The notes beneath the pieces are model-generated. The model searched no databases. It had not been told where the DNA came from and worked only from the letters and a program-made list of their open reading frames with translations. A stretch of DNA of 43,530 nucleotides from a virus (taxonomy: Duplodnaviria; Heunggongvirae; Uroviricota; Caudoviricetes), in the IMG/VR virus record IMGVR_UViG_2734482773_000003, positions 1 through 43,530 of that record; one strand, given 5' to 3'. Made by a program: the position numbers and the translations under genes. Below, piece by piece: positions 17,988 through 43,530 of the stretch (positions within the stretch are counted from its first letter, which is position 1; each line of letters begins with the position of its first letter).

Positions 17988-18063
17988 GCTGATTTAGCTC
18001 AGTAGGTAGAGCGCCTGCCTTGTAAGCAGGATGTCGGCGGTTCAACTCCGTCAATCAGCACCA
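17988..18063 (+). tRNA. tRNA-Thr (anticodon UGU)
   Basis: 76-nt cloverleaf folded by hand: 7-bp acceptor stem GCTGATT/AATCAGC, D-arm GCTC/GAGC, anticodon stem CCTGC/GCAGG with loop CTTGTAA (U33, anticodon TGT, A37), T-arm GGCGG/CCGTC with TTCAACT loop, encoded CCA. Confidence 0.8.
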
Positions 18064-24973: not shown

Positions 24974-25012
24974 TATCATCATGTAAATGATAAAGTTGCT
25001 TAAGGGTGAGCA

Positions 25013-25528: not shown

Positions 25529-25544
25529 CCTCAGAGCTCCTGAA

Positions 25545-25567
25545 GGTCGCTACGGCGGCCTTTTTTA
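25545..25567 (+). terminator. intrinsic terminator after the inserted membrane-protein gene
   Basis: hairpin ggtcgc-tacg-gcggcc (one G-U) 25545..25560 followed by ttttttatt. Confidence 0.5.
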
Positions 25568-25597
25568 TTGCCAGATATCCAATAACGAGGACCCAGC

Positions 25598-26986: not shown

Positions 26987-26989
26987 AAA

Positions 26990-27424: not shown

Positions 27425-27434
27425 GGAGCACTGA

Positions 27435-28532
27435 ATGTTTGTATTCTCCAAGTCTATCGGCGAGAAGACCGGTAACCTCGCGGTAAACCAGGCGCAATGG
27501 CGCGCTCTCGAACTTGAGCGAAACGCCAGTGCTCAGGCAGCAGCTGATTTTCTGGCGCGCACTCAGTTCCGTGGTGATGCAGAAAACGCCCCTTATCTCG
27601 ACGCGGTGAACGCAGTTGACGATATCCGCCGCCTGTATCGCGCTTTCGACACAACTGTGCTTCAGCAGTTCGAGCCAAATACCGAATTCACCCTGCTGAA
27701 CGATCTGATGCCGCTCTCTCGCTCCGTGCGAATTGAGCAGTCTCGTTACGATTACGCTCGTACCGGCGGCCGCGGCTGGGCTCATACTTCCATGTCCGGT
27801 CAGGTTGGTGCGGCGCTGGATGCTCGCAGCTATTCCTTCGATGGCACCATGGTACCTATTCACGACTCGGGCTTTAAGTTCGAATGGCGTGATCCAATCT
27901 TCAACAGCCCACAGGCATTGCAGTCGCAGGCTGATGCGCAGCGTGGTTCGGTTGAAGACGTTCAGCGTCGTTACGTTGACTACATCTTCAACGGCTTCCG
28001 CGACAAAGCTGGCAACTTCGCAGTGTTTGACGGTCTGACCTGGAAAGGGTTGCGTGACGATGAGCGCGTAGCGCAGATCGACCTTGGCGCTTCAGGCCTG
28101 AACATCGATTTTACCTCTGGCACAGCAACGTCTCAGGACATCCGCGCCGGGGCAATCGTGCTTCGTGATCAGATGCGTCGCGTAAACAACCAGTATGCAG
28201 AGCAGACCTGGTATGTATCCGGCGAAATCATCTCCAACCTGGAACGCTACTTCTCCGACAACTTCCAGTCCGGAACGATCATGGATGAAATCCTGAAGCT
28301 GACCGGTGTAGCGGCGATTAAAGAAGACAGCCAACTGTCAGGTAACGAAATCGTCATCGTTCCACTGAGTGCAGGTGTCATTGCTCCAATCGTCGGCCAG
28401 GCTATCGGTACCGTTGCATCTCCGCGTCCTGAGTACAACAGCGACTACATCTGGCGCACCTGGGGTGCAATGGGGTTGATGGTCAAGCAGGACATCAACA
28501 ACAAATACTCCGTAATTCACGCATCAAGCTAA
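27435..28532 (+). CDS. major capsid protein
   Basis: 365 aa, position after scaffold/decoration genes; GGAG upstream; assignment by size and position. Confidence 0.65.
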   Translation: MFVFSKSIGEKTGNLAVNQAQWRALELERNASAQAAADFLARTQFRGDAENAPYLDAVNAVDDIRRLYRAFDTTVLQQFEPNTEFTLLNDLMPLSRSVRIEQSRYDYARTGGRGWAHTSMSGQVGAALDARSYSFDGTMVPIHDSGFKFEWRDPIFNSPQALQSQADAQRGSVEDVQRRYVDYIFNGFRDKAGNFAVFDGLTWKGLRDDERVAQIDLGASGLNIDFTSGTATSQDIRAGAIVLRDQMRRVNNQYAEQTWYVSGEIISNLERYFSDNFQSGTIMDEILKLTGVAAIKEDSQLSGNEIVIVPLSAGVIAPIVGQAIGTVASPRPEYNSDYIWRTWGAMGLMVKQDINNKYSVIHASS

Positions 28533-28541
28533 GGATAAATC

Positions 28542-28907
28542 ATGGCACTGGTAGAAATCGTGGCAAGTAACCTGCACGCCGGTGCCAATCTCCGCAAACT
28601 GGAGGTTGGTTCGGTGGTGGATGTTGACGACGCAACGGCTGAGCGCTGGATCAGCGCTGGCAAGGCGAAGCAAACCGACAAGAAGAAAGGCGAGAAGCTT
28701 ACCTTCGAAGTGGCAACTCCGTCCGCGCAGGCGGCAGACCTTTCTGGCCTGCAAAAGCAACTCGCCGACGCGCTGGAGCAGAACCAAAAGCTAATCGCCG
28801 ATGGTGAAGCAAAAGACAAGGCTCACGCCGACGCACTGGCAGCAGAAACAAAACGCGCTGACGAAGCCGAAGCGGCATTGGCGGAAGCAACCAAGAAGGC
28901 GAAATAA
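28542..28907 (+). CDS. hypothetical head-associated protein (coiled-coil C-terminus)
   Basis: ATG 28542 with AAGGA upstream; Ala/Lys/Glu-rich C-terminus. Confidence 0.45.
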   Translation: MALVEIVASNLHAGANLRKLEVGSVVDVDDATAERWISAGKAKQTDKKKGEKLTFEVATPSAQAADLSGLQKQLADALEQNQKLIADGEAKDKAHADALAAETKRADEAEAALAEATKKAK

Positions 28908-28909
28908 CC

Positions 28910-29290
28910 ATGGCTGACCCAATCACAGCGGCAGACGTGCAGGCGTACCTCGGTGAATTGGGTTACACCATTCCCATGGCGTTGCTGGATCCAATTCTCT
29001 GCGCGGTCAACAAAATTATCCCGTGCCTCGATGGTGCGGGGTATGACGAGTGCACTGCAAAGCTGATTCTGATGTACGCCGCCGCGCTTATGGCTACGTC
29101 GTCTGGTGCGCGCCGCATCAAATCACAGGGTGCGCCGTCTGGCGCGTCCCGCTCGTTTGAATATGGTGACGACAGCATTACCTGGCTGCGCGACTCGTTG
29201 GCTCGTCTCGATACCAGCGGATGCACCGGTGAGTTACCGATCAGCGCTGGTAATAGTGTCGGCCTGTTCATGGTGGTCGGGGGCTGCTGA
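28910..29290 (+). CDS. putative head-tail connector protein
   Basis: position between capsid and tail genes; begins 3 nt after the previous stop. Confidence 0.45.
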   Translation: MADPITAADVQAYLGELGYTIPMALLDPILCAVNKIIPCLDGAGYDECTAKLILMYAAALMATSSGARRIKSQGAPSGASRSFEYGDDSITWLRDSLARLDTSGCTGELPISAGNSVGLFMVVGGC

Positions 29291-29463
29291 TGACGTACAA
29301 ATCAGTTAAGCACGGCCTGCCGCGCTCATTCACCCGCGTCTGGGTGATGACCGACACAGGGCGGGAGACAACCGGTTACGTTAAGTCGGACGGCGAGTGG
29401 TTCATCAACTGCCCGCGCATCCGGGCGACTGGCGCCGCTGTGCTGCGATGGAGGGATGACTGA
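29290..29463 (+). CDS. small translationally coupled protein (57 aa)
   Basis: not in the ORF table; ATG 29290 overlaps the upstream stop (TGATG) and its stop overlaps the next ATG at 29463; MTYKSVKHGLPRSFTRVWVMTDTGRETTGYVKSDGEWFINCPRIRATGAAVLRWRDD. Confidence 0.4.
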   Translation: MTYKSVKHGLPRSFTRVWVMTDTGRETTGYVKSDGEWFINCPRIRATGAAVLRWRDD

Positions 29464-29810
29464 TGTCGTCAACCGCTAATTGGTCATACACCGCGACGGC
29501 GACAATCTGGCGCAATCTCGGTAACGATGAATACGGTGACTCGCTCGGCTTCTCTGCCCCTGAGTCGATTCTCTGTGATTACGAAGGTGGCCTGTCAAAG
29601 CGCATCGGCAATATCGGATCTGAAATCGTCGTGAAGAATACCGTTTGGACTGAGTATGCACTGGCAGCGGCGGGTGATTACCTGCTGATTGGCCAGTCAA
29701 CCGAATCCGATCCGGTTGTCGCCGGAGCAGACGAGGTGCGGCAGGTTATCCGCTACGCCGACACGTTCGAGCGCCTAGTGGATGATTACGCCATCCTGAC
29801 GGGGGTGTAG
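29463..29810 (+). CDS. putative head-tail adaptor / head closure protein
   Basis: 115 aa, translationally coupled within the head-tail joining gene block. Confidence 0.45.
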   Translation: MSSTANWSYTATATIWRNLGNDEYGDSLGFSAPESILCDYEGGLSKRIGNIGSEIVVKNTVWTEYALAAAGDYLLIGQSTESDPVVAGADEVRQVIRYADTFERLVDDYAILTGV

Positions 29811-29812
29811 CC

Positions 29813-30277
29813 ATGGGCATCAAAGTGAAGGGCGTTAGCCAGGCGAAAAAGCACCTGAACGATGTCATCAACGACGTGAAGTGGCGCAAGGTGATTCGCG
29901 CGCTGCAGTCGGCGATGATTCTCATCGGGGCACGGGCAGCCTATTACACCCCGATCGACACCTCTACGCTGATTAACAGCCAGTTTCGCGAAATTGACGC
30001 TGGCGGCGTGTTCATCACCGGGCGCATCGGTTACTCAGCAAACTATGCCGCGTACGTTCATGAGGCGTCAGGCAAGCTGAAAGGTCAGCCGCGCGCGCAC
30101 TTTGGTATAACCAGCAACCGATCTGAGTTCGGTCCGCAGAAACCGAAAGAGTTCGGCGGCGGCACCGGAAAGGGCAACTACTGGGATCCGCACGGTGAAC
30201 CGCAATTCCTGACCAAAGGCGCGAATGATGAGCGCGATAACGTTGATGCGGTGATGCGCAAGGAGCTTTCGCTATGA
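29813..30277 (+). CDS. HK97 gp10-like tail-component protein
   Basis: 154 aa; MGIKVKGVSQAKKHLNDV... resembles the HK97 gp10 family (from memory); position in head-tail joining block. Confidence 0.55.
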   Translation: MGIKVKGVSQAKKHLNDVINDVKWRKVIRALQSAMILIGARAAYYTPIDTSTLINSQFREIDAGGVFITGRIGYSANYAAYVHEASGKLKGQPRAHFGITSNRSEFGPQKPKEFGGGTGKGNYWDPHGEPQFLTKGANDERDNVDAVMRKELSL

Positions 30278-30657
30278 CACCCATGATGCACGAGCGGGTG
30301 CGCAACATGTTCGGCGACGCCGGGCTAACTACCGGTTTCACGGTGCAGCAGCTGATGTACGACGACCCGGGAGACCTGTCGAAGGCGATCATGGTGTTCA
30401 GGCCTAACGGCGGGTCGTATATTCGGACTGACCTCGGCTCTGAGTATCACGTCCTGGTCGACGTCGTAGGCGCAAAAGATAAGCGCAAAGACGCACTCAA
30501 TGCCGTACAGCGCATCGTCGATTACGTCCAGGCCAACCCCATGGCTGACGAGTGCGTCGGCTACATCCAGAACATGGGCGCAATTCCCGCGCCGGTGCTC
30601 ACAGAAGAAGGGCGAATAGTCTTCAGACTCCAGTTCGCCTGCACTTACGGCGAATAG
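30274..30657 (+). CDS. putative tail completion / tail terminator protein
   Basis: 127 aa, start overlaps the previous stop; last gene before the terminator and major tail gene. Confidence 0.45.
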   Translation: MTPMMHERVRNMFGDAGLTTGFTVQQLMYDDPGDLSKAIMVFRPNGGSYIRTDLGSEYHVLVDVVGAKDKRKDALNAVQRIVDYVQANPMADECVGYIQNMGAIPAPVLTEEGRIVFRLQFACTYGE

Positions 30658-30674
30658 CCATCCCAACCAAATAA

Positions 30675-30699
30675 CCCGCTTCGGCGGGTTTTCTTTTTA
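30675..30699 (+). terminator. intrinsic terminator/attenuator before the major tail gene
   Basis: hairpin acccgc-ttcg-gcgggt 30675..30690 followed by tttctttttat. Confidence 0.55.
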
Positions 30700-30720
30700 T
30701 ACGTCAAAGAGGAGTTTCAA

Positions 30721-31464
30721 ATGGCTAATTGCCAGAACTCGAACGAACGCCTGTTCGGCGGTGCGGTCGTGCTGGAAGTCGCCGATGGCTGCCCGGATGT
30801 CAAACCACTCGAATCTGAGTGGAAGGCGCTGGCTGCTGGTACGTCGAAAGGCTTCGACTTCAACCCTAACTCGGTTACCTCTGATGCGGATGACGGCGGC
30901 GGCTATGTCGAGACCATCATCACCAACAGTGACTTCACCCTGAGCTTTGAAGGTGAAGTGCGCAAGAAGGACAAACTGGACCAGTACGGTGTCGGCAAGT
31001 TCATCAAGTATTTCGCTGATGAGCTGAAGGCTAAGCGCCAGCCAGGTATCTGGGTGCGCATGGACTACGGTCCGATTGAATTCATCGGCTACATGAACAT
31101 TAACGCGTTGAGTTCTGACGGTGGCACTAACGATATCGTCACGTTCTCTACTGAGTTCAAGGTCGGTGACGCGAGCACTATCGAAGTGAACGAAATCACT
31201 GCGGTAGCAGTGACTGGTGTGACGGTAACCCCGACTACCAGCACTGGCGCGGCTGGCGGTACCAGCACCTTCACGGTGAATATCGCACCAACCGGCGCAA
31301 CAAATACTGGCTTCACCGTCGCTTCAACCGATCCCACCAAAGCCACTGCCACGGCATCAGGTACTACCGTCACGGTTAACCGTGTGGCGACCGGCAGCGC
31401 GCAGATCATCATCAACACCGAAGACGGCAACTTTGTGGCCGTGCATACGGTAACAGTTACTTAA
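30721..31464 (+). CDS. major tail tube protein with C-terminal Ig-like domain
   Basis: AAGAGGAG upstream; C-terminal Thr/Val-rich beta segment (VTGVTVTPTTSTGAAGGTSTFTVNIAPTGATNTGFTV...) typical of Ig-like domains on lambda V-type tail tubes. Confidence 0.65.
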   Translation: MANCQNSNERLFGGAVVLEVADGCPDVKPLESEWKALAAGTSKGFDFNPNSVTSDADDGGGYVETIITNSDFTLSFEGEVRKKDKLDQYGVGKFIKYFADELKAKRQPGIWVRMDYGPIEFIGYMNINALSSDGGTNDIVTFSTEFKVGDASTIEVNEITAVAVTGVTVTPTTSTGAAGGTSTFTVNIAPTGATNTGFTVASTDPTKATATASGTTVTVNRVATGSAQIIINTEDGNFVAVHTVTVT

Positions 31465-31521
31465 CGGACATTCCAAAGGGTGGCGTGCCGCCCTTGATAA
31501 TGACCGTTTACTGGAAGGCCT

Positions 31522-32193
31522 ATGACCGCTTTAACAGATATTGGCGAACTCTCTATCAGCGACAGCCGCGAAGGCGGGAAAGATTACCTGTTACGGCCGT
31601 CATTCGAGGCTATGGCGAGAATCGGCACTCCGGAAGAGATTGTGCAGGCGTATGCCACCATCCACGGGAATGATGTCGCTCAACTCATTGAGGTGTGCAC
31701 CGGCGGGCTGGGCCGCTTTCCTGAATGGCTATCACCTTCATTCAACCGCGCCGCTGAGAAGCTGTTATCAACGTGCATGCTTGTGCTGCAGGCGTGTTGT
31801 GATGATGACCTGACGCCAATGATTGGCGAATGGAAAGGGTGGCGACATTGTGTCGTCTACCGCCCGGGCCAGATGCCGAAGAACGACATCATCGTACTGG
31901 CGCAGCACCTCATGCAGCACGGGGTCGTAGGTAAAGCCAAAGTTCGACAGTTGCAGCGTCACGAGACTGACGAGCGCACTACCGAGTTTAAAGCCTTCGA
32001 CTACATCAGCGCGGCACGAAGTCACTTCGGCATGAATCGCGCCGAAGCTTCGCAGCTAACGATGACCGAATTTCAGATGCTGCTGGCCACGAAATACCCG
32101 GACCAGAAAGGTTTCACTCGCGAAGAGTACGACAGCATCGCCGACGAATACCTGGCTAAACAGGCCGCGCGCAGGGCACAAGTTAGTAGTTAA
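31522..32193 (+). CDS. putative tail assembly chaperone
   Basis: position between major tail and tape-measure genes; 223 aa; no obvious frameshift partner identified. Confidence 0.5.
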   Translation: MTALTDIGELSISDSREGGKDYLLRPSFEAMARIGTPEEIVQAYATIHGNDVAQLIEVCTGGLGRFPEWLSPSFNRAAEKLLSTCMLVLQACCDDDLTPMIGEWKGWRHCVVYRPGQMPKNDIIVLAQHLMQHGVVGKAKVRQLQRHETDERTTEFKAFDYISAARSHFGMNRAEASQLTMTEFQMLLATKYPDQKGFTREEYDSIADEYLAKQAARRAQVSS

Positions 32194-32239
32194 TAAAATG
32201 AAATTTACAAAATTACCTTTTATTTTGCACTAGCCATAC

Positions 32240-32268
32240 TTGCAGGGTTATTGAGTAGGAGTTATAGT
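32240..32268 (+). promoter_or_regulatory. candidate sigma70 promoter for the inserted NYN-domain gene
   Basis: TTGCAG (32240..32245) - 17 nt - TATAGT (32263..32268), in an AT-rich tract directly after the chaperone stop. Confidence 0.45.
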
Positions 32269-32281
32269 TCGCAACAATGAT

Positions 32282-32335
32282 GTGGGCGGCTCGCACCCCA
32301 TACAAGTGAGGTTTACCTCCGCGAGCCTAACCCAC
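32282..32335 (+). other. structured 5' leader element upstream of the NYN-domain gene
   Basis: nested complementarity gtggg/cccac (32282..32286 with 32331..32335) and ggctcgc/gcgagcc (32288..32294 with 32321..32327) enclosing an inner gaggt/acctc hairpin; followed by a C/U-rich tract; the ATG at 32373 lacks a clear Shine-Dalgarno. Confidence 0.35.
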
Positions 32336-32372
32336 CACTCTCCCTCTAATTCCCCGAATTCGGTTAATAAAA

Positions 32373-33005
32373 ATGGAAAGACAGTACGCAGTACTTCTTG
32401 ACGCAGGGTTCTTGCGCCGAAAATTAGGTACTCAGGCAGCACCAATGACAGCTCAAAATGTCGAAGATTTAGTTAATAAAATTAAAGCACGAGCTGAGTT
32501 ATTAGGGATGCGGTTGTATCGTGTGTTTTATTACGACGCTGAGCCTTTCACGGGTACTAAGACACATCCTATATCCAACGCTGTTATTAACTTTGGCGCT
32601 ACACAAATGGCCATTGATTGTAATACATTGTTAGATGAGCTTAAGGTCAAGCCTTTTTTTGCTGTGCGCCTAGGGGAACTCAATTTTAGAGGGTGGAAGG
32701 TTTCTGATGCTGCTCTTCAGTCAGGTGCAGGAGGGACGGCAACAATTAATGCTCATAATGTTTCTCCCAATCTTCAGCAGAAAGGTGTGGATATGAGGAT
32801 CGCATTAGATATCTCATCTATGACTTTAAAAAACCAAGCAGACGTTTTTTGCTTGGTAACAGGTGACTCAGATTTTGCACCCATCATCAAATTTGCGAGA
32901 TCTGAAGGAAAGCAAGTATTCACTTATACTCTCGGTCATAGAGTCAAACCATCTTTGCCTATTCATTCTGACCTCCATATCCCTGAAACGTACGCTAATT
33001 TGTAA
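32373..33005 (+). CDS. AT-rich inserted gene: NYN/LabA-like (PIN-fold) nuclease-domain protein
   Basis: 210 aa; motifs AVLLDAGFL, KGVDMRIALD and LVTGDSDFAPIIKFARSEGKQV match the NYN/LabA acidic-residue signature (from memory); visibly AT-rich; flanked by its own promoter and terminator inside the tail module. Confidence 0.6.
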   Translation: MERQYAVLLDAGFLRRKLGTQAAPMTAQNVEDLVNKIKARAELLGMRLYRVFYYDAEPFTGTKTHPISNAVINFGATQMAIDCNTLLDELKVKPFFAVRLGELNFRGWKVSDAALQSGAGGTATINAHNVSPNLQQKGVDMRIALDISSMTLKNQADVFCLVTGDSDFAPIIKFARSEGKQVFTYTLGHRVKPSLPIHSDLHIPETYANL

Positions 33006-33023
33006 ACTTTAATCATTTCTTAA

Positions 33024-33047
33024 AACCCGCTTCGGCGGGTTTTTTTA
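33024..33047 (+). terminator. intrinsic terminator after the NYN-domain gene
   Basis: hairpin aacccgc-ttcg-gcgggtt 33024..33041 followed by tttttt; same hairpin core as at 30675. Confidence 0.55.
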
Positions 33048-33062
33048 TGTCCGGAGAACGAC

Positions 33063-35993
33063 ATGGCAGGTGAGAAAAACGCCGGTAGCATCGTTTATGA
33101 AGTCAGCGCCAATATTGAGCCGCTGCTGCAGGGCGGTAAACAGGCCATTGATGCTCTGGATAAACTGGATGCTGCAGCCCAGCAGTCCGGGAAGGGAATG
33201 GATAACCTCGACCAGAGCACGTCTCAAACCGGATCCGCTTTTACTGAACTGGCTGGTTATGCCAATTCCATGGATAACCAGCTGCGCAAGCTGAACACCA
33301 ACGTGAGCGGAATTGCCCGCGCTATGGAAGAGGCCCGCAGCGGTACCGGCGGCGCGAGCAGTGAATTCAGTCGCGCAGAATCAATCATCGAGGCGCTGGG
33401 TAACCAGCTGGCTGTGCTGGACGAAGCGCAGGAGAATGGCGCGCGTAGTGCCGCGGTTCTGGCAGCCCAGCTCCGAGCCGGGTCAAAAGCTACAGACGAA
33501 GAGAAGCAGAAGATCGGCGAATTGACTGGGCGGCTCTTCGACATGAAAGGCGCTGCTGATACCTCGATGGGCAGTAATAAAGGCTGGAAGGCCAGCATGC
33601 AGCAGGCTGGTTATCAGGTTCAGGATTTCATAGTACAGGTGCAGGGCGGCCAGTCTGCGCTGGTGGCGTTCGCTCAGCAGGGGTCTCAACTCGCTGGTGC
33701 ATTCGGTCCCGGCGGCGCAGTCGTTGGTGCCATAATCGCGCTTGGTTCGGTGCTGGCTGGCGTGCTGATTACTTCGCTGAATGGCGGCAAGAATGCCATG
33801 GATGCGCTGAAAGACGCAGCTGAAGCGATGGATAAGGTTATCACCATTTCATCGCAAGGCGTGGCCGCGCTTTCCGACAAGTATGCTGCCCTGGCGCGCG
33901 TAAATGCCGACGTGGCTACTTTGCTGAGAAATCAGGCACTGCTCGAGTATAACCAGGCGATCTCAAAGATTCCTAAAGCCATTAGTGACGCGTCTGATGC
34001 TTTCATTACGTTAGGCGATCGCGCACTGGCGGCTGTTGGCGGTGCGTCTCCAAGCATCAAAAAGTTCAACGATGAGCTTTCTGCGCTTGGCGTTACCACA
34101 AATGACTGGAGCCAGGCCATTCAACAGGCCAACAGTCAGGGGCAATATGCCTCTGGCATTGTGAACTCTTTATCTTCAACGGTCAGCACGCTTTCTTCAC
34201 GCCTCGGCATCAGCAAGCAATCAGCGTTTGATCTTGCAAGAGAGTTATCAGACCTGAGCAACAACCCGTCGCCTGAAGCACTTCAGGAACTGGCGAAAAA
34301 GCTCCAGGAAATGAAGTCCTCCTCCAAAGATGGGCAGTCAGCCATTGCTGAGCTGGCTGGTAAACTTGTCGATCTGGCAAGAGAGGCAGCCAATGCGAAG
34401 ATCAATGTAGACAGCCTGAATAAGTCCACGGATAACCTTACCGCCGGACAGAAGAACCTGATCAAACAGTCCGAGCGCAACCTGGCACTCTCGAAGTTGC
34501 AGGGCGAGGCTCGCGCACGGTTGCAGGCGCAATACGCTGCCGAAGATGCTGGATTTGCGAAGGATGATCCGCATGCCAAGCAGATGGAAGATGATGCTGC
34601 CGCTACGTACAAAAATACGGAAGAGCAAAAGAAGCTTAAATCGGAGCAGAAAAAAGGAGCATCTCAGGCAGAAACCATTGCTCAGAAGCTGGCGAACCTG
34701 AAACAGCAGTCAGAACTCGCTGCCTATTCAACGAATAAGCTGAGCCGAGAGCAGGCTATTCTGAATGCGCAGCAGTCGCTCGGGAAAGGTGCCACCAAAG
34801 AGCAGATAGCACTTGCCGGTCAGTATGCGGCCAAAAAATGGGACACCGCCAACGCCATTAAGGCTCAGGCTGCAGCGGAGAAACTTCTTCCTGAGGCCCG
34901 CGAGAACGCCAGCTACAGGCAGGATGTTGAGGACCTGAATACCGCTCTGGCTGCGAAGAAAATCAGTCAGGAGCAGTTCAATCAGACATCCGAGCGACTG
35001 GAAGCAACTCACCAGGCCAACCTTGCGAAAATCCGTGCCGATCAGGCTGTCAGCCCACTGCAGGAAGCTGCTGGCGGTGTGGATCCGGTGCAGCAACTGG
35101 CGAATGAAAATGCCCGAAAACTCGCGCTTATTCAGGCTTACGAGCAGCAGGGGATTATTACTCACCAGAACGCGCTTATGCTGCGCGCATCAGCTGACAG
35201 GGAGTACGAGCAGGCTCGCATCGCGGCGCAATGGGAGATTTTCCGTAACCAGAGCGCAGGCAATGAAGCGCTGGCGGCGTCCTTTGATGCACTGGCCGGT
35301 AATGCGTCCAATGCCTTAACCGGCATCATCACCGGGAGCATGTCAGCTTCCGATGCTCTGCGCTCGATCGGGAATACCGTACTGAACAGCCTCATCAACA
35401 CCTTCGTCCAGATGGGCGTTGAGTGGGTTAAATCGGCAATCATGGGGCAGACGGCCACCACTGCAGCGGTTGCAGCATCTACCACGGCGCAGGCAGCAGG
35501 CATTGCCACTACCACGGCGACGTCTACCGCGGCGGCGGCGGCCACAACTGCAGCATGGACGCCAGCGGCCATCATGTCCTCCATTGCGTCATTCGGTGGA
35601 GCGGTGGCGATCGGCATCGGAGCTATGGCTGGCATCCTGGCACTGTCAGGAAAGCGTAAGAACGGCGGGCCGGTTAGTGCAAGCGGAATGTATCAGGTCG
35701 GCGAAGGTGGAATGCCGGAGATTTACCAGGCCAGCACCGGTAAGCAGTACATGATACCGGGCGACAACGGCAAGGTGATCAGCAACAAGGAAATGACTGC
35801 CGGAGGCGGTGGCGGGGTAATTTTGAATATCAACAATTACTCTTCAGCGTCGGTCGATGCACAGGCTACGCAGGGCAGTGACGGCACCTGGACTATCGAT
35901 ACATTCATCGCTGACATGAATAATGGTGGACCAGCAAGCCAGGCTATTACCAGCAATTTGAACGTTAAGCGCACGCCAAGGGGGCAGGGCTGA
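33063..35993 (+). CDS. tail tape measure protein
   Basis: 976 aa, largely alpha-helical Ala/Gln/Leu-rich with hydrophobic Gly/Ala segments; canonical position after the chaperone. Confidence 0.85.
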   Translation: MAGEKNAGSIVYEVSANIEPLLQGGKQAIDALDKLDAAAQQSGKGMDNLDQSTSQTGSAFTELAGYANSMDNQLRKLNTNVSGIARAMEEARSGTGGASSEFSRAESIIEALGNQLAVLDEAQENGARSAAVLAAQLRAGSKATDEEKQKIGELTGRLFDMKGAADTSMGSNKGWKASMQQAGYQVQDFIVQVQGGQSALVAFAQQGSQLAGAFGPGGAVVGAIIALGSVLAGVLITSLNGGKNAMDALKDAAEAMDKVITISSQGVAALSDKYAALARVNADVATLLRNQALLEYNQAISKIPKAISDASDAFITLGDRALAAVGGASPSIKKFNDELSALGVTTNDWSQAIQQANSQGQYASGIVNSLSSTVSTLSSRLGISKQSAFDLARELSDLSNNPSPEALQELAKKLQEMKSSSKDGQSAIAELAGKLVDLAREAANAKINVDSLNKSTDNLTAGQKNLIKQSERNLALSKLQGEARARLQAQYAAEDAGFAKDDPHAKQMEDDAAATYKNTEEQKKLKSEQKKGASQAETIAQKLANLKQQSELAAYSTNKLSREQAILNAQQSLGKGATKEQIALAGQYAAKKWDTANAIKAQAAAEKLLPEARENASYRQDVEDLNTALAAKKISQEQFNQTSERLEATHQANLAKIRADQAVSPLQEAAGGVDPVQQLANENARKLALIQAYEQQGIITHQNALMLRASADREYEQARIAAQWEIFRNQSAGNEALAASFDALAGNASNALTGIITGSMSASDALRSIGNTVLNSLINTFVQMGVEWVKSAIMGQTATTAAVAASTTAQAAGIATTTATSTAAAAATTAAWTPAAIMSSIASFGGAVAIGIGAMAGILALSGKRKNGGPVSASGMYQVGEGGMPEIYQASTGKQYMIPGDNGKVISNKEMTAGGGGGVILNINNYSSASVDAQATQGSDGTWTIDTFIADMNNGGPASQAITSNLNVKRTPRGQG

Positions 35994-36490
35994 TGCCAAT
36001 TATCGACTATCCCGACTGGCTTCCGCTGGCGCAGAAGGCCAGCAAAAATATGACGCTCGATACCGGGTTCCAGACCGACCAGCCAGCGGTCGGCCCGGCT
36101 ATCTTCCAGAACCTTACTCACGACCTGAAAGTGACATGGTCCCTGACATGGATCTTCACTCTGGACCAGGAGCGCGCTTTCCAGCAGTGGCTGCGCAGCC
36201 CGAACTATCTCAACCGGGGCCTGAACTGGTTCCGGATGAATATCAACCTTGGCGGTAGCGGTCTGCAGCTGCAGGAGCTTCACTTCACGCAGATGCCGGT
36301 GCAAACCAGTATTGACGGCGGTGTGGTGACCTGGACAGGGACAGTTATTGCGAACCACCTCTACAACGCCGACGACGAGTTCGACGACATCATTGTAGAG
36401 CTGCCGCCACCGTGGGATTCGTGGCTGGATATCGTGGTTACGGGTTATCCGGACAATAGAGACCCAGAATCACTTCCGAGGGTGCCGTAA
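35993..36490 (+). CDS. minor tail protein
   Basis: 165 aa, ATG overlapping the tape-measure stop; position of lambda M-type distal tail genes. Confidence 0.5.
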   Translation: MPIIDYPDWLPLAQKASKNMTLDTGFQTDQPAVGPAIFQNLTHDLKVTWSLTWIFTLDQERAFQQWLRSPNYLNRGLNWFRMNINLGGSGLQLQELHFTQMPVQTSIDGGVVTWTGTVIANHLYNADDEFDDIIVELPPPWDSWLDIVVTGYPDNRDPESLPRVP

Positions 36491-36960
36491 TGCAGAGCTT
36501 CAGGGAGTACAAGCAGCAACGGCCGACGCGTGGGCTGTACGATACCATTACTTTCTACCATCCATCCTTTGGCTACATCCACCTGGTCGATAAGCAGTTC
36601 TTTCCGAAGACGCTCGGCGGCCAGACGTACACGCCCGCGCGCTTTGAAATCGAGGAGAGTCAGCAGAGCGGCACGCCGGTAATCGACGCGACGGTGAAGT
36701 TAGGGCGGCTTTCGTCGGACATCAAAGCGCTGATGAAGCAGTGGAAGGGCGCGGCCCGGCTGACGGCCATCACGGCCACAAGGCAGATCTTCGACAGCGG
36801 GGACGTGTCTGTGCCGATTAAGTCCTGGCAGTTATACGTCAAGACAGTGGACATCGATGCTGACTCCGCGTCAGTAACCCTGTCCGTCACCAACCCGCTG
36901 AACAACAACATCGGAAGGCTCTATGACCCAACGGAATATACCGGCCTGCAGTACCTCTGA
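36490..36960 (+). CDS. minor tail protein
   Basis: 156 aa, start overlapping the upstream stop. Confidence 0.5.
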   Translation: MQSFREYKQQRPTRGLYDTITFYHPSFGYIHLVDKQFFPKTLGGQTYTPARFEIEESQQSGTPVIDATVKLGRLSSDIKALMKQWKGAARLTAITATRQIFDSGDVSVPIKSWQLYVKTVDIDADSASVTLSVTNPLNNNIGRLYDPTEYTGLQYL

Positions 36961-37339
36961 TTTTGTTCGGAAGGTGATCGGCGTGCCATGGGCTAACCGG
37001 GCCTGTTCGTTCGAGAAGTTGGATTGCTGGGGGCTGGTGGTGCTGTATTACCGGCACGTTCTCGGCATTGAACTGCACCAGACGCCGGACTACGAAGCCG
37101 GTGAGGATTTCTTCACCTGCTATCAGGGAGACGTCGTTTTCTGGCGCAAGCTCGATAAACCGGTCGATGGCGGGATATTCGTCGGGTACCGCGGCGCGCA
37201 ACCTGCGCATGTTGGCCTGGTACTGAACCGGCAGGCGCTGCACTCGCGCGGCGAGAACGGAAGCGTGCGCATGGACTCGTTGCTGGTCATTCAGCGGGCA
37301 TTCACCAAAGTGGAGTTTTTCGAATATGGCGTTGATTGA
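36923..37339 (+). CDS. NlpC/P60-family tail protein (lambda K-like cysteine peptidase domain)
   Basis: catalytic-type Cys in LDCWGLVVLYY and His in AHVGLVL; position after the minor tail genes. Confidence 0.6.
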   Translation: MTQRNIPACSTSDFVRKVIGVPWANRACSFEKLDCWGLVVLYYRHVLGIELHQTPDYEAGEDFFTCYQGDVVFWRKLDKPVDGGIFVGYRGAQPAHVGLVLNRQALHSRGENGSVRMDSLLVIQRAFTKVEFFEYGVD

Positions 37340-39803
37340 GCTTCAGCGTTTCCCGGGGACGCCAAAAGAACGCTACAGGGTGCCAAACGGCACCCTTTTT
37401 TATGACTGGCTGGTGGCAAATGACGCTACCTTTCACCGCGATCTGCTGATTGTCCGGAACGGCGTAAAGCTTTGTGATGATGACGAGCTGGCGTTTGAGC
37501 TGAGCGAACTGGACAACATCCAGATTTTCGACCAGCCAAAGGGCATTGTCAGTGACATCCTGAGCCCGATTTTCAAAGTTGTCGGGTCTGTATTTTCTTT
37601 TCTGGCGCCTAAGCCGGCAATCGCAAATACCGGTGGTAACACTGTCGACTCGCCAAACAATAGCCTGACCGGTCAGACAAACACCGCGCGCGTCTATAAA
37701 GCCAAACCGGACATATACGGGCAGGTGCGTTCTTTCCCAGACCTGATTCAGGAATCACTGTTTGAGTACATCAGCACTGGCGTGCGAGACGGTGGCAAGA
37801 AGTACGTGACGGAATGGATGTGTATCGGGATTGGCAAGTACAATTATGAGTCTGTGCGCTACTCAGAATCGAGCCTTGGAAGCATGGCCGGAGCCGAATA
37901 CCAGTTCATTCAGCCTGGCGAGGTAATCCCGTCGATTAACGAAGGCTACAGCTTCGATGACGTCGATGGGCAGGAAGTCCCGGGTGCGAACCAGGGCGAA
38001 TCGTTCCCTGTTGAAACCGCTACAGCCAACACAGTGGTCAGCGGCACGTATGCCGGCGGTCAGATAGCGGTGAAAATCGTTAAACAGGCGGAATTTGACT
38101 ATTTCATGGGCCTGGTATTGCCGCATGCCGTCTCGTTCGACATAAACGTCACTTACGCGACTGCCTCTGGTTCGGTAACTACTGACGCCACGTTCTCCGG
38201 CACGCTTGTTTCAGCTGTAGAGACAAACGACGGCGCGGTGATAAACCCAGTCCGCTGGTACACCTTCACCATGGGCGACCTGGATGGCCCGCCAGATATC
38301 CCCGCTACCGCAACGATCAACACGACGAAGTTCGTGCTGAACGACAACGAAGCGCTGGTCGTAGGTCCGTTCTTTTCTCCGGTTGAATCAACGCAGTTGT
38401 GGATCCATACCCAAAGTAGCCTCGGTCCGAAGAAGCAGACCAACTGGAAGGTGGTGCTTTGGAAAATTGATGACGACTACAACATGATCCCTGGCACTCA
38501 GCAGACGCTGGTGTTCAAGCAGACAACCTGGCACAAGCAGGATAGCGAGACATTCTATCGGACCGACAAGATAGTGCCGACTGGCGGCTTCGGGAAGTAC
38601 GCCATTAACCTGCAGCGCACCGATAACTCTGGTGATGCGTCGATACTCAAACTTGAGGAAATCCACGCCGTAAACGTGCGAACAAACGTTGTCCATCCAA
38701 CCGATACGCTGGTGCGCGTGAAGGTTAGGGCTACAGAGAACGCGCTGGGCAGCCGCGACCGCAAATACAACGCCCTGGTAACGCGGCACACCATCACGTA
38801 CGATCTGGACACGCAGACGGTAGATTACACGCTGCGTCCGTCGCGTTCATTCGCTGATGCAGTGGCTCACACATGGCTGATTATGGGTGAGCAGCCCGTA
38901 AGCAGCATTGACCTGTATGGGTTGTATTCGATCGCCGAAAGCCTGCCTGATGAGCGCCTTGGTTACTTCGACTATACCTTTGATGATGAGAACGACTCTC
39001 TGGGAGACCGCGTGCAGGCGATCTGCAATGCGGCATCTGTGGTGGCGTACTGGGACGACGGTGTGCTCACGTTTACCCGCGATCAGAAAGTTGACTACCC
39101 GGCGGCGGTATTCAACCGGGCCAACATGAAGACTGACGAGTACAAAATGACGTACGAAGCTACTCTTCCGGGCGGTTATGACGGCGTTCAGGTGTCATAC
39201 GTCCACCCCACAACGAACAACAAGACGTACATCAACTACCGGGTTCTGAACGGCGCCATCGTTGAGCAGGAAGCGGAAAACCCGAACAAGCTGGAGATAG
39301 TCGGCTTCCGTAACGAGTACCAGGCCCCAGAACGAGCTCTGCGAGAAACCAAGCGCCTGATTTACTCTCGGGTGAAGATGAACGCCAAAGTGTTTGAGGA
39401 CGGCATTATCCAGGTCGGTAGCGTCATTCAGATGCCCGACATCTACGACAGCAACCAGCAACAGGGTTACATCACCGGGCGCGCCGGTAATAACTTTGAT
39501 ACCAGCGAGCCGATCACGTTTACCGGTTCGATGTATGTGCTGGTGACAGACAGCCTGGGTAACCCGACACTGCGCTATCCAGCGGCTGCGCGTGGCGACA
39601 CGAAGTACGGATTCACTGCGGCTATCCCCAACATTCAGCTCAATATCTGGAACGGAGACACTGTGCAGCTCCCGTCCCGCTACCTCATCGCGACCGTTGA
39701 GGAACTGGACAGTCAGCTATGGACGGTCAACAGCATCAAACCTAACACAGATAACACCGTATCTCTGACAGTCGCTGAATACAGCGACGCCATCTACCAA
39801 TAA
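37326..39803 (+). CDS. tail tip / host-specificity protein (I/J-position)
   Basis: 825 aa, overlapping start with the upstream gene; position of the central tail fibre/tip assembly genes. Confidence 0.6.
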   Translation: MALIELQRFPGTPKERYRVPNGTLFYDWLVANDATFHRDLLIVRNGVKLCDDDELAFELSELDNIQIFDQPKGIVSDILSPIFKVVGSVFSFLAPKPAIANTGGNTVDSPNNSLTGQTNTARVYKAKPDIYGQVRSFPDLIQESLFEYISTGVRDGGKKYVTEWMCIGIGKYNYESVRYSESSLGSMAGAEYQFIQPGEVIPSINEGYSFDDVDGQEVPGANQGESFPVETATANTVVSGTYAGGQIAVKIVKQAEFDYFMGLVLPHAVSFDINVTYATASGSVTTDATFSGTLVSAVETNDGAVINPVRWYTFTMGDLDGPPDIPATATINTTKFVLNDNEALVVGPFFSPVESTQLWIHTQSSLGPKKQTNWKVVLWKIDDDYNMIPGTQQTLVFKQTTWHKQDSETFYRTDKIVPTGGFGKYAINLQRTDNSGDASILKLEEIHAVNVRTNVVHPTDTLVRVKVRATENALGSRDRKYNALVTRHTITYDLDTQTVDYTLRPSRSFADAVAHTWLIMGEQPVSSIDLYGLYSIAESLPDERLGYFDYTFDDENDSLGDRVQAICNAASVVAYWDDGVLTFTRDQKVDYPAAVFNRANMKTDEYKMTYEATLPGGYDGVQVSYVHPTTNNKTYINYRVLNGAIVEQEAENPNKLEIVGFRNEYQAPERALRETKRLIYSRVKMNAKVFEDGIIQVGSVIQMPDIYDSNQQQGYITGRAGNNFDTSEPITFTGSMYVLVTDSLGNPTLRYPAAARGDTKYGFTAAIPNIQLNIWNGDTVQLPSRYLIATVEELDSQLWTVNSIKPNTDNTVSLTVAEYSDAIYQ

Positions 39804-39825
39804 GAACCGCCCCCGACCAACCAGA

Positions 39826-39850
39826 CCCGGCCGCCGCGCCGGGTTTTTTT
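39826..39850 (+). terminator. intrinsic terminator between tail-tip and tail-fibre genes
   Basis: hairpin cccggc-cgccgc-gccggg 39826..39843 followed by ttttttt. Confidence 0.55.
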
Positions 39851-39861
39851 ATGGAATCAAT

Positions 39862-41730
39862 ATGGCTACGACACCTACCAATCTTCCTGTTCCAAGTGAA
39901 TCACCGCGCGATCTGAAATTTAACGCCGGAAAAATAGACGAGTTTGTAACCTCAGGAAATCATGTTTATGTTGACAGGTTCGGCGATGAACATCGTACAA
40001 TTGCTGGCATAAATTACGATGCAAATCAGGCAATGCTGAATTATGGCTACATCACGAAGAAGTCTTTTGAAATTGGCGCTACCCTCGACACTCCTAACAC
40101 TGTTCTTCAGTGGGAGAGCAATGGCGAATACTACCGCTGGGATGGGGACTGGTCACAGCCCAAAGTAGTTCCCGCTGGTTCTACGCCTGATAGTACCGGT
40201 GGAATTGGGGAAGGGAAATGGGTTGGAGTAGGAGATGCTTCATTAAGGTCTGATTTGGCTGGTGCCGGTGGTTCAGATATGATCGGGACACCTAATGGAA
40301 CTGTGGAAGAAAGGCTTAATCAACTAAAGGATAAGGATGAAGATTTAGGGAAAAAGATAGTAACAACTATCATTCCATGTCCTACACCAACAATCGATAA
40401 TGGTGTAAAGGCTGTTGTGAAATCATCATCTGATGATGATTTTTATATTATCTCTAAAAGAGCCAATGGTAAGTCTGGCTTTATCGCTTTGCGCGTAACC
40501 AATGACGTATCAGTTTCTGATGCGAGCAACTACGGTGGTGCATCACCATTCCGTCCTGGATCTGTTGAGCGAGTGAGAGATGCGATTTATGCGAAGTTAG
40601 CTCCATCCACTAAATCATCTGGTGTTACTTTATCAACCCTAACTGCATCACAAATCGCAACACTTTATGGATTTACAGCAACCGGAAGTTCTATCAACGC
40701 AGTGACTGCAAGTGGCGATTTTTCGCTTATAAGCCCACAGGTATATAACGTTCCTAATGGCGAATCTGTTGTTTATAAGCTTGAAATGTCGAATAAAGCT
40801 ACAATTCGGCTTGGATGCTCTAATGGTGCTTCTACAACTGTAAATATAAGCATCAGTCGAGATGGAACTAACTGGCTTCTTCAGAAAACAGTTAACACAC
40901 AACTTCCTCCATCAGGTCTTGGTCCGCTACCTCTTGATATTGAAGTGAATGGTCTAAGTGGTGTTTGGTATGTTCGTGTATCAAATGGGCACGCCAACCC
41001 TCTGTATCTTGTCGGTCTGAATATTGGCTATATTGGTTCTGATAAAATATATGACTATGATGCATTCATTGCAACGATAGAGCCTGATTTGAGTACTGGA
41101 CCTTCATATTATTTCGGAGGTAATGGAGCTACAGAATTTGCAGCGAAAGAATTATCTACTGGTAAATTCTTCGGAACATTCCATGGTGGTCATAGTAATT
41201 TTCTTCAAAGATTAAGAACCGAATCAGCTTCTTATAACCTGGATAGCTCCACTGCACCAACTCTCTTGCTTACGAAGAATGCCACTTTACACAGCGCTTC
41301 TCTTATCACGGTGCAGTCATCAACATATAACTATGTGGCGTCAACACAGTTTGGTGATGGTGTGACTATCACTAATTTCGCACTTCAGAAGCAATCCGGA
41401 GAGGCAATTTTATGTGAGCGAATTTATACGCACATGGCAACATCTGCGCGAAACTTCGACTGGATACACCTTCCTGTTCTTCTGAATAAGACGGATGATG
41501 GGTATGTTCAGGTTGGTCAGTGCGGATTTATACAGCAATTCAGATCAGACGATGCGGCTTACGTTAACTGCTACTTTTCGCAAGTCAACGTCTCTGAAAA
41601 CGGCTATGGAGGGGCTTATGTTTCCTTCCAAAATAACTATAACAAGCAGTATTATGGGTCAGTATTTTCTTCTTCAGTAGGGGTTCCTCTTTCTGACGGC
41701 TCCTACACAACATGTAAAGAGTTTTTCTGA
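39862..41730 (+). CDS. tail fibre / tailspike protein with conserved N-terminal anchor and divergent AT-rich C-terminal receptor-binding region
   Basis: 622 aa; composition drops to AT-rich after roughly the first 150 codons; Ser/Thr/Asn/Gly/Tyr-rich C-terminus typical of beta-structured receptor-binding/depolymerase domains. Confidence 0.65.
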   Translation: MATTPTNLPVPSESPRDLKFNAGKIDEFVTSGNHVYVDRFGDEHRTIAGINYDANQAMLNYGYITKKSFEIGATLDTPNTVLQWESNGEYYRWDGDWSQPKVVPAGSTPDSTGGIGEGKWVGVGDASLRSDLAGAGGSDMIGTPNGTVEERLNQLKDKDEDLGKKIVTTIIPCPTPTIDNGVKAVVKSSSDDDFYIISKRANGKSGFIALRVTNDVSVSDASNYGGASPFRPGSVERVRDAIYAKLAPSTKSSGVTLSTLTASQIATLYGFTATGSSINAVTASGDFSLISPQVYNVPNGESVVYKLEMSNKATIRLGCSNGASTTVNISISRDGTNWLLQKTVNTQLPPSGLGPLPLDIEVNGLSGVWYVRVSNGHANPLYLVGLNIGYIGSDKIYDYDAFIATIEPDLSTGPSYYFGGNGATEFAAKELSTGKFFGTFHGGHSNFLQRLRTESASYNLDSSTAPTLLLTKNATLHSASLITVQSSTYNYVASTQFGDGVTITNFALQKQSGEAILCERIYTHMATSARNFDWIHLPVLLNKTDDGYVQVGQCGFIQQFRSDDAAYVNCYFSQVNVSENGYGGAYVSFQNNYNKQYYGSVFSSSVGVPLSDGSYTTCKEFF

Positions 41731-41749
41731 TACCCAAGGCTTGGAGAAT

Positions 41750-41773
41750 GGGCAAGGCCGCAATGCCTTGCCC
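41750..41773. terminator. hairpin between convergent tail-fibre and acyltransferase genes (possible bidirectional terminator)
   Basis: gggcaaggc-cgcaat-gccttgccc 41750..41773; no strong U-tract on either strand. Confidence 0.35.
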
Positions 41774-41798
41774 ATATCCTGTTATGAATCAGCAGAGG

Positions 41799-42908
41799 CT
41801 AAATTGCTGGTTTTCTTGTCTTGATTAAATTACCTGCCATATCAACCAAATATTTTCTTAATGCCAAGATAGCAAGGTTTATAATAATAGGGATAACAAT
41901 GCCTGCAACGATATAAACAGGCCAGTACAAAGGATCTGAAAAGTGCGACAAAGCCTTAGCTTTCCCTATTTCATACATTCCCATCCAGCCGAAAATAATA
42001 TCCAACAAAATGAATGCAAGTAAGTGGAAAGACATAATGCATTTGCTTTCCCTCCCTATGTAGAGAATGGTTTTCGACTTTATTGCTTTAGATAGCATGC
42101 AGGATAAGGAAAATACTATATATGAGCAAAGTAATATTTGAACATAAGTCAGCAAAAATCCATGCTTGTAGTTACTCCATGAAACCCCTATATCTCCGCT
42201 TAGCCCCAGTCGGCGCATAGTAATAACCAATAAAAACGCCAAGCACATCCAAAGCAAAGAAGGTGATTTAAATATCAAATCCTTAAATGTTTTTCCTATC
42301 AACATAAAGGCAAGCGCAAAGAGGATTTGAGAACCATAGTTATTTAATATATTCCATTCAGATTTGTATGCCACAGCAAGATAATCGATGGAAACCCAAC
42401 CACATGCTATGATAGTCAGAACGGATAAAATACTTTTCGCGGTTCTATTTAAATGTTTTGTTATGCGCAGATAGCAATATAGAAGGATGGATGCCATTGC
42501 ATATGCGAAAAGAAACCATGATACTAAAAATAAAAAACTAATATGCATATTAGTATTCAAAAAGTAAATGGCATAATCATAGATAGAGCTCTGAGCTTTA
42601 TATAGCCCTGAAATTCCAGTGCTCTCTTGTATAAGATATGAAACTAGCAATAAAAACATATCCACAATTACTATATAAAAAAAGAACTTTCTGATTATTA
42701 TACTAAGGAATTGTAGAGGGTTTTTATTCTCGTTAAATACAATTCCTCCAATCATGAAAAATAGAGGCATATGATACATATACGGCGTCATAACATTAAA
42801 TATGTTATTTGAGTAGTGCCCTATAACGACAACAATAATTCCAAGAGCCTTTGCATAATCAATAGCAGCTCTCCTGTATTGCTGATCATCATTGCTAATC
42901 GTATTCAT
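41799..42908 (-). CDS. acyltransferase-3 family integral membrane protein (putative O-antigen/polysaccharide O-acetyltransferase; lysogenic-conversion candidate)
   Basis: 369 aa with about 10 predicted TM helices; N-terminal RAAIDYAKALGIIVVVIGHY matches the acyltransferase-3 start motif; strongly AT-rich; AGGGTG upstream of ATG 42908; convergent with the tail fibre. Confidence 0.7.
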   Translation of the reverse strand: MNTISNDDQQYRRAAIDYAKALGIIVVVIGHYSNNIFNVMTPYMYHMPLFFMIGGIVFNENKNPLQFLSIIIRKFFFYIVIVDMFLLLVSYLIQESTGISGLYKAQSSIYDYAIYFLNTNMHISFLFLVSWFLFAYAMASILLYCYLRITKHLNRTAKSILSVLTIIACGWVSIDYLAVAYKSEWNILNNYGSQILFALAFMLIGKTFKDLIFKSPSLLWMCLAFLLVITMRRLGLSGDIGVSWSNYKHGFLLTYVQILLCSYIVFSLSCMLSKAIKSKTILYIGRESKCIMSFHLLAFILLDIIFGWMGMYEIGKAKALSHFSDPLYWPVYIVAGIVIPIIINLAILALRKYLVDMAGNLIKTRKPAI

Positions 42909-43183
42909 TCTTCACCCTGCGTAGTTCATTTCACGAATCATTCTGTAGGGATACACGTCGCATCACTACTGACGGCACCGTCACATGAAGCATGATAACT
43001 GCGTAATCAGATCGTGATTAACGCGTTATTGTCAAAAGGATGCGACAGCATACCCGAAGGTAGTTTTTCGATCGAGTAAATCGTTAGTAAGAACAGACGT
43101 CCATAGCAAAAATAAACGCTAAAACATCAACAGCCTATAAATTTCAATCCCTCTAAAACTTGATCAAAGTTAGCTCTTGTGTG

Positions 43184-43203
43184 TACTGTATATATATACA
43201 GTT
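43184..43203 (+). promoter_or_regulatory. LexA (SOS) box overlapping a candidate promoter
   Basis: tactgtatatatatacagtt contains CTGT-(AT)4-ACAG, the LexA-box consensus; candidate -35 TTGATC at 43161..43166 with -10 inside the box. Confidence 0.6.
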
Positions 43204-43224
43204 TTTGTTGTCCTGAGGATGATT

Positions 43225-43530
43225 ATGCAGACAGGGGATAAACGATACAAGCTCGAGCATTTATGTGGGGTTAGCCACTCTTCCTGTCTGGTTGAAACTT
43301 CAGGTGGATACGCGCTTTTTCAGCCTGAACTTGTGCCCACCAACGGAACACGCGTGCTGGTGCATGCGTTCGGACAACTACAGTTCGCGGTCGTTATGGG
43401 CGGTGCGCTCATCACCGAAGACGGTGAAAGCATAGAGGGAGATGCTTTAGATGAAGTCGATGTCATGGGAGTTGTGACCTTTTTTATCAGTGGCGCTGCG
43501 GCGTTCACAGACGACAATCCGGTGATGTGA
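43225..43530 (+). CDS. SOS-regulated small protein of unknown function (101 aa)
   Basis: ORF 43177..43530; ATG 43225 with GAGGA 5 nt upstream, about 22 nt downstream of the LexA box; stop at 43528..43530. Confidence 0.45.
   Translation: MQTGDKRYKLEHLCGVSHSSCLVETSGGYALFQPELVPTNGTRVLVHAFGQLQFAVVMGGALITEDGESIEGDALDEVDVMGVVTFFISGAAAFTDDNPVM

Follow-up and report, generated by a model that had tools for sequence, protein, structure and literature searches.

A stand-alone acyltransferase-3 gene convergent with the tail spike gene of a lambdoid prophage, a candidate for lysogenic conversion

The phage genome analyzed here (the window, 43,530 nucleotides in all), that of a temperate lambdoid siphovirus with phi80, HK639 and Enterobacter phage CobraSix among its relatives, carries beside its tail spike gene an acyltransferase-3 (AT3) gene that is, on balance, rather likely to serve lysogenic conversion, its product modifying the surface polysaccharide that the phage's own spike recognizes. 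By analogy with Oac of Sf6, PhiV10 and OafB of BTP1, the target would most likely be the O-antigen. This reading builds on what can be observed directly, namely the gene, its family and fold class, its motifs, its position and its recurrent linkage to receptor-binding proteins. It is also that of the original prediction, whose computationally testable parts were all borne out. The argument turns on the following two genes.

41799..42908, minus strand: gene for a stand-alone AT3 integral membrane protein of 369 aa (ATG-to-stop ORF, Pfam match, family alignments, AlphaFold model).
39862..41730, plus strand: tail spike gene, 622 aa (PF18668 Tail_spike_N, many PHROG tail-fibre and tail-spike matches).

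The original prediction had described an AT-rich gene for a multi-pass membrane protein at 41799-42908, and an ORF runs exactly from ATG to stop between these positions on the minus strand, with a GC content of 33.9%; the window averages 52.5% and the neighbouring TipJ gene 54%. Because it extends over 1.1 kb in such AT-rich DNA, this ORF is not a chance event; low GC is typical of polysaccharide genes gained horizontally. Its product matches the Pfam profile PF01757 (Acyl_transf_3) with 56.2 bits (gathering score 31; E=3.8e-15), aa 14-344 covering profile positions 2-325 of 326, and is thus confirmed by profile comparison as a full-length member of the superfamily foreseen in the prediction. 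Hydropathy and an AlphaFold model (pLDDT 90.2, pTM 0.89) both point to about 10 transmembrane helices (TMHs), as expected of a multi-pass protein, with positively charged N- and C-termini; the modelled helices span residues 6-30, 46-56, 64-97, 130-149, 155-184, 187-207, 218-233, 250-275, 288-308 and 329-364, and a periplasmic helix is modelled at 109-118. The architecture is AT3-only: the single Pfam domain (aa 14-344) accounts for most of the 369 residues, the model stops after TMH10, and neither the Pfam scan nor the model contains an SGNH/GDSL domain or an 11th TMH. In Foldseek comparisons against the PDB, the first-ranked match, itself weak, was GWT1 with palmitoyl-CoA (E=0.06, probability 0.98, TM 0.39), followed by one to HGSNAT (E=0.59), also weak; both are acyl-CoA-dependent transmembrane acyltransferases with solved structures, so that the ranking agrees with the AT3 assignment and does not decide it. 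A search of viral folds in BFVD with the same model returned only noise.

The predicted N-terminal AT3 motif is present in TMH1 as K20-X10-H31, a form of the R/K-X10-H motif in which the two residues are separated by exactly 10 others. Both are invariant across an alignment of 23 relatives, and in a joint alignment they line up with Arg and His in Sf6 Oac and in two further AT3 proteins introduced below, those of a Citrobacter portucalensis prophage (L015) and of Escherichia coli 2452 (L172). Other invariant residues in the 23-relative alignment include H46-M-P, F50-F51, G55, W131-F132 and H295, the corresponding motifs of the window protein being H46-M-P-x-F-F, W131-F132, S288 and H295, and the catalytic-site residues remain invariant in relatives as distant as 25% identity. 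The RxxR motif of TMH3, located at its cytoplasmic end and said to be essential and highly conserved in AT3 proteins, is by contrast degenerate: the window protein reads I70-I-I-R73-K74, so that the first Arg is replaced by Ile and only the second Arg is kept, followed by a mostly conserved Lys, and the canonical form is thus absent. The subfamily as a whole is variable at both Arg positions. The AT3 literature, for its part, holds the R/K-X10-H of TMH1 to be essential (Arg14 and His25 of OafB; PMC9558356, PMC9833829).

Where in the AT3 family does this protein belong? Its subfamily is small: when 1.84 billion representative proteins were scanned in full with HMMER, 44 relatives reached E<=1e-30 and 98 reached E<=1e-10; the gene itself is present in one of 5,426 complete E. 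coli genomes. PHROGs and PADLOC hold no model matching it, NCBIfam has no family for it at E<=0.1, a sequence search of the PDB gave no match, and tblastn against 50,697 phage records, which we expect to include PhiV10 and phages of the OacB/C/D type, gave none at E<=1e-5. In a large protein database, the relatives carry only the name 'acyltransferase family protein'. Housekeeping AT3 proteins such as WecH and OpgC can be set apart via models only, in that no named NCBIfam model matches the window protein. Judged by these searches, it belongs to an uncharacterized branch of the AT3 family.

The proposed likeness to phage O-antigen acetylases holds for superfamily membership and for an Sf6-like geometry, and fails where orthology to Oac is concerned. 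Like Oac (OacA) of Sf6, a serotype-converting O-antigen 2-O-acetyltransferase, the window protein is a stand-alone AT3 (369 versus 333 aa) with about 10 TMHs, a basic residue-X10-His in TMH1 and an FF-x-x-G motif. Both genes are prophage-borne and share the same order, i.e. tail spike on the plus strand, a hairpin or terminator, AT3 on the minus strand with its own upstream region, near the prophage end; a separate transcription unit at this location matches the Sf6 annotation, where oac has a promoter of its own, the window promoter being a candidate only. Yet BLASTP between the two proteins gives E=1.5, and hhalign a probability of 1.4% with only the N-terminal 70 columns aligned, although in register. 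To judge from this lack of pairwise similarity, the window protein, which has Ile in place of the first Arg of RxxR, is not an Oac orthologue and resembles it at superfamily level only. The phages differ as well, since the lambdoid siphovirus of the window has a spike that is no beta-helix, whereas Sf6 is a P22-like podovirus with an endorhamnosidase; and while the activity of Oac is established, that of the window protein is putative.

Other known systems fall on either side of this comparison. PhiV10 of E. coli O157:H7 and OacB/C/D of Shigella represent phage- or island-borne, AT3-only O-antigen acetylases that confer immunity to the carrying phage (PMC9558356), but these are described as oac homologues, in contrast to the window gene with its blank result among the phage records. 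OafA of Salmonella and OafB (GtrC of prophage BTP1), the latter prophage-encoded and protective against the BTP1 tail spike, have the AT3 membrane domain with its R/K-X10-H in common with the window protein; they differ from it by one more TMH, the 11th, and by an SGNH domain in the periplasm, which carries out the final transfer. The principle of a seroconversion gene lying beside the tail spike is already textbook for P22-like phages, where such genes sit between the tail spike and int/att (PMC8787464, PMC9558356).

The neighbour, too, is as predicted a receptor-binding protein in convergent position: the spike gene at 39862..41730 is preceded by a gene for an 825-aa TipJ-like protein (phrog_469), and a spacer of 68 bp separates it from the AT3 gene. 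The spike is built of two parts.

39862..40311, plus strand: N-terminal anchor of the Tail_spike_N (TSP1/gp66) type, for virion attachment (PF18668; PDB sequence matches limited to aa 1-155).
40312..41730, plus strand: receptor-binding domain, aa 151-622, modular and all-beta, with a galactose-mutarotase-like/GH174-like fold.

The anchor is common to spikes with other receptor domains, at 54-85% identity, and the receptor domain for its part is a mobile module, which in Enterobacterales occurs on several anchors. Its fold resembles that of carbohydrate-active enzymes, and it is presumed to be the part that binds or cleaves the glycan proposed to be modified by the AT3 protein; Pfam and fold comparison found no esterase domain in the window spike.

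Between and beyond the two genes lie two further elements.

41750..41773, no strand assigned: GC-rich inverted repeat with perfect 9-bp arms, GGGCAAGGC-cgcaat-GCCTTGCCC, lying between the stop codons of the two convergent genes.
42909..43224, minus strand: intergenic region upstream of AT3, shared divergently with the next gene (sequence and promoter scans).

With fold energies of -26.7 and -26.5 kcal/mol on the two strands (z -2.9 and -2.4), the repeat is a candidate bidirectional terminator, a function that is only inferred because the hairpin is followed by no clear U-tract. It may have a second meaning. Compared with the copy in Enterobacter hormaechei, the spike gene has a DNA identity of 65-80%, but from about 41826, a short way 3' of the hairpin, the figure is 99-100%; the hairpin therefore coincides with a candidate recombination boundary, possibly the left edge of a recently exchanged DNA block. 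Within the spike gene, near 40000 and just past the anchor, GC content drops from about 55% to 40-45%, and in the AT3 gene it is down to 30-36%. Upstream of AT3, a standard promoter and terminator scan found nothing above shuffled background; the best candidate from a relaxed scan is a non-canonical promoter consisting of TTGACA (43035-43030), an 18-nt spacer and TCTGAT (43011-43006), and a weak Shine-Dalgarno sequence, AGGGTGA, lies ahead of the ATG. The region 42909..43224 is nearly identical in E. hormaechei and unalignable with distant homologues, and the aligned homologue upstream regions contain no conserved promoter. Nor is there a distinctive phase-variation signature of paired GATC sites, three GATC occurring in 330 bp.

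Is the company of a spike gene peculiar to this phage? Among IMG/VR viral contigs, 19 loci carry clear members of the AT3 subfamily, and in all 19 the immediate 3' gene lies on the opposite strand and encodes a tail fibre, a tail spike or a P2-type fibre-assembly chaperone (18 of these neighbours were profile-scanned, the remaining one, L099, being the window's own arrangement). The anchors of these neighbours are of phrog_1640, Tail_spike_N, P2 and P22 type, and in one case (L117) the subfamily member adjoins a spike with a best PHROG match that bears the label 'colanic acid degradation'. Further relatives repeat the pattern: one with 61% identity (P0002) lies in the same siphovirus tail module; one with 31% (P0017) lies between the fibre chaperone and sheath genes of a P2-like prophage; another with 31% (P0021) adjoins a beta-helix spike in Escherichia albertii; and a Citrobacter murliniae homologue (29%) sits between a Tail_spike_N spike and a UmuD-like gene. 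Some relatives in the subfamily are stand-alone chromosomal genes without phage context. The link between this AT3 gene and receptor-binding proteins is recurrent, not accidental, and it is worth noting, beyond the single gene, that an AT3 branch missed by phage protein libraries is always found beside a receptor-binding gene in these viral loci.

The same slot can, moreover, be filled by unrelated AT3 lineages, which is again worth noting beyond the single gene. In the C. portucalensis prophage (L015), whose spike has a receptor domain 66% identical to that of the window, the slot holds a canonical AT3 that aligns over its full length with Sf6 Oac (25% identity, E=3e-6) and has no similarity to the window protein. 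In E. coli 2452 (L172, 5050-8756), a spike on the same anchor, this time with a GDSL esterase domain, is followed by a convergent gene of yet another AT3 lineage. These two proteins occupy the same position as the window AT3, convergent with a Tail_spike_N spike after the same TipJ/NlpC-P60 tail module, and differ from it in their Pfam scores (111.9 and 78.4 bits, respectively), a canonical RxxR and the lack of BLAST similarity to it. In E. coli XJ55 (L173, 5063-10154), an esterase-domain spike on the same anchor is likewise followed by a convergent acyltransferase gene; here the slot contains a 227-aa SGNH fragment and an acyltransferase gene with an IS5 element between them, which suggests an AT3-SGNH gene disrupted by IS5. 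A puzzling feature of 2452 and XJ55 is that an acetyl-removing spike lies beside an enzyme that adds acetyl groups.

That the AT3 strictly co-evolves with the receptor domain was considered and rejected. In E. hormaechei, the AT3 protein in the slot is 98.6% identical to that of the window while the spike is 81% identical overall (86% in the receptor domain), from which it follows that AT3 and spike have separate recent histories; the homologue with 61% identity is paired with an unrelated receptor domain; and the receptor domain occurs without any AT3 in a P22-type E. coli prophage and a Providencia phage. Because of these last cases, the pairing is not obligatory. As a separate observation, the P22-type E. 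coli prophage (L017) bears the receptor domain, at 60% identity, on a Head_binding anchor, and a 650-bp gene-free gap (6848-7498) between its spike and a host dacC-like gene might be a former AT3 site.

E. coli A14 shares with the window the right half only (window 24218-43530, 99.5% identity), the stretch with spike and AT3 reaching 99.9% over window 39800-43530, in a 24.6-kb remnant between yciA and yciB (NZ_CP028760.1, 2100504-2124712). The left half is closest to a prophage of E. coli 23CRST004 (98.8% identity over 79% of the query), so that an identity of the window with the A14 prophage was ruled out. In the remnant, the integrase is followed almost at once by head and tail genes, the window's early and lysis region being absent, and spike, AT3 and umuDC-like genes are kept at 99.5-99.9% identity. 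In A14 and E. hormaechei alike, a 101-aa ORF and then a Y-family polymerase gene stand between AT3 and the host genes, and AT3 therefore lies near the right prophage end. As for possible acceptors, two clusters are intact in A14, one of the Wzx/Wzy type for O-antigen, with wzzB, and one for colanic acid, while no group 1/4 capsule cluster is seen at galF-gnd. The O-antigen cluster of A14 is common to NCTC9008 and two other genomes and carries the label 'O8 family O-antigen polymerase'; naming the A14 serogroup from wzx/wzy was attempted and not established, and A14 is not necessarily the host of the window.

Three further features of the prophage deserve mention in their own right. A perfect LexA-box palindrome, CTGTATATATATACAG, at 43186-43201 is the sole CTGT-N8-ACAG site in the window and lies just upstream of the 101-aa ORF (43225-43530), which has no Pfam match, overlaps the start of the Y-family DNA polymerase gene in A14 and E. 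hormaechei, and has a Peptidase_S24 protein as its counterpart in C. murliniae and E. coli 2452; box, ORF and polymerase look like an SOS-regulated umuD'C-like moron at the right prophage end. An NYN-domain gene (210 aa, 32373-33005, plus strand) lies in the tail operon between a DUF6246 tail gene and the tape-measure gene and, with weak PADLOC matches to HEC-09 (E=4e-4) and an NYN nuclease (E=8e-4), may be a defence or counter-defence moron. Finally, a tRNA-Thr gene (anticodon TGT) occupies 17988-18063 on the plus strand, in the late-regulatory or lysis region.

How might the AT3 protein act? We infer its acyl donor, its glycan acceptor, its expression in the lysogen and the resulting phenotype (serotype change and exclusion) along the following lines. 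The gene would be a moron, i.e. a lysogenic-conversion gene, at the right end of a lambdoid (phi80/CobraSix-like) prophage, and it should be expressible in the lysogen because it is transcribed against the direction of the late operon, with an upstream region of its own and a hairpin after it. Its product of about 10 helices, residing in the inner membrane, would bind cytoplasmic acyl-CoA, most likely acetyl-CoA, via the basic residues K20 and R73/K74 and would present the thioester to His31 near the periplasmic face, a mechanism borrowed from the AT3 family. The acyl group would then pass to a hydroxyl on a sugar of a surface polysaccharide that is being assembled in the periplasm, most probably an undecaprenyl-linked O-antigen repeat or polymer. 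We propose that the glycan so altered is the one recognized by the phage's own spike, and that the alteration would therefore change the serotype and reduce adsorption of the same or similar phages.

Support for conversion by surface acylation comes from the full-length AT3 domain with its aligned K20 and H31, the confident model, the Sf6-like gene order, the linkage in 19/19 loci, the refilling of the slot, the carbohydrate-enzyme fold of the spike and a carrier, A14, with an intact Wzx/Wzy O-antigen cluster. What speaks against it, as far as sequence comparison goes, is that no orthology to characterized O-antigen acetylases is detectable, that RxxR is degenerate and that no promoter is convincing; the receptor domain is also seen without AT3, the histories of AT3 and spike are separate, and some relatives are chromosomal.

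A less probable reading, possible but doubtful, keeps the AT3 protein active and gives it an acceptor other than the O-antigen (K antigen, colanic acid, enterobacterial common antigen, LPS core or periplasmic glucans) or a group other than acetyl, succinyl being an example, as for OpgC and IcaC. AT3 proteins do also acylate capsules, enterobacterial common antigen, periplasmic glucans and secreted products, and AT3-only enzymes are known for all the acceptors just listed (PMC9558356). Colanic acid is brought to mind by the spike label at one of the IMG/VR loci and by the intact cluster in A14, and capsule by Klebsiella, where prophage acetyltransferases and esterase spikes track the capsule type (PMC13123978); the window spike, moreover, is characterized, as regards its glycan, at the level of fold class only. 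Set against this are the phage AT3 proteins found in such a position in Enterobacteriaceae (Oac of Sf6, OacD of SfII, PhiV10 and OafB of BTP1), all of which act on the O-antigen, as well as the failure of the window protein to match a named housekeeping AT3 in NCBIfam and the lack of a group 1/4 capsule cluster at galF-gnd of A14.

Does the enzyme have to mask a receptor at all? Because AT3 genes also adjoin esterase-type spikes, receptor masking is not the sole possible logic. In what is a rather unlikely extension of the results, the window AT3 would stand for a dedicated phage clade, missing from PHROGs and from the deposited phage genomes, that has a degenerate RxxR and obligately accompanies receptor-binding proteins, and the 3' slot would combine acyl 'writers' (at least four AT3 lineages) with glycan 'readers' or 'erasers', some prophages not just masking a receptor but writing the very acetyl mark that their own spike needs or removes. 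That masking plays no part, the AT3 protein writing a mark that the spikes of the lineage read or erase, or else acting as a host-fitness moron (immune evasion, barrier) at a permissive site, we regard as unlikely. The sister E. coli prophages, which pair the AT3 of the slot with GDSL/SGNH esterase spikes, fit this idea, as such spikes would use an O-acetylated glycan by analogy with G7C gp63.1 (PMC13123978), and so do the recent history of the AT3 block, separate from that of the spike, and its location, the stretch beside att where the late operon ends being a classic place for morons (PMC8787464). The window's own spike, however, has no esterase domain; the P2-like relative between fibre chaperone and sheath genes is not at a prophage end, yet is still beside the fibre; and a pairing in 19/19 loci over unrelated tail types, with four AT3 lineages in one slot, exceeds what a generic hotspot would predict. 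Very improbable, finally, is a passenger gene that is inactive or in decay and serves no function at present, a view for which the degenerate RxxR, the absence of a clear promoter and the remnant state of the A14 prophage without its early region might be cited, but which is at odds with an intact ORF in AT-rich DNA, catalytic-site residues that are invariant in relatives down to 25% identity, a protein 98.6% identical between E. coli-type and E. hormaechei prophages and a confident, compact model.

For the search for receptor-modifying genes that escape PHROGs-like libraries, the findings offer a genomic rule in two parts: this AT3 subfamily is always convergent to a receptor-binding gene in the viral loci, and unrelated AT3 lineages substitute for each other in that slot. 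Should the preferred reading be correct, i.e. should the AT3 protein acylate the O-antigen or another surface glycan, the prophage would change both the serotype of its host and its susceptibility to phages. Since near-identical copies occur in prophages of both E. coli type and E. hormaechei, this would then be a trait moving between genera, with consequences for serotyping, for the targets of glycoconjugate vaccines and for the choice of therapy phages.
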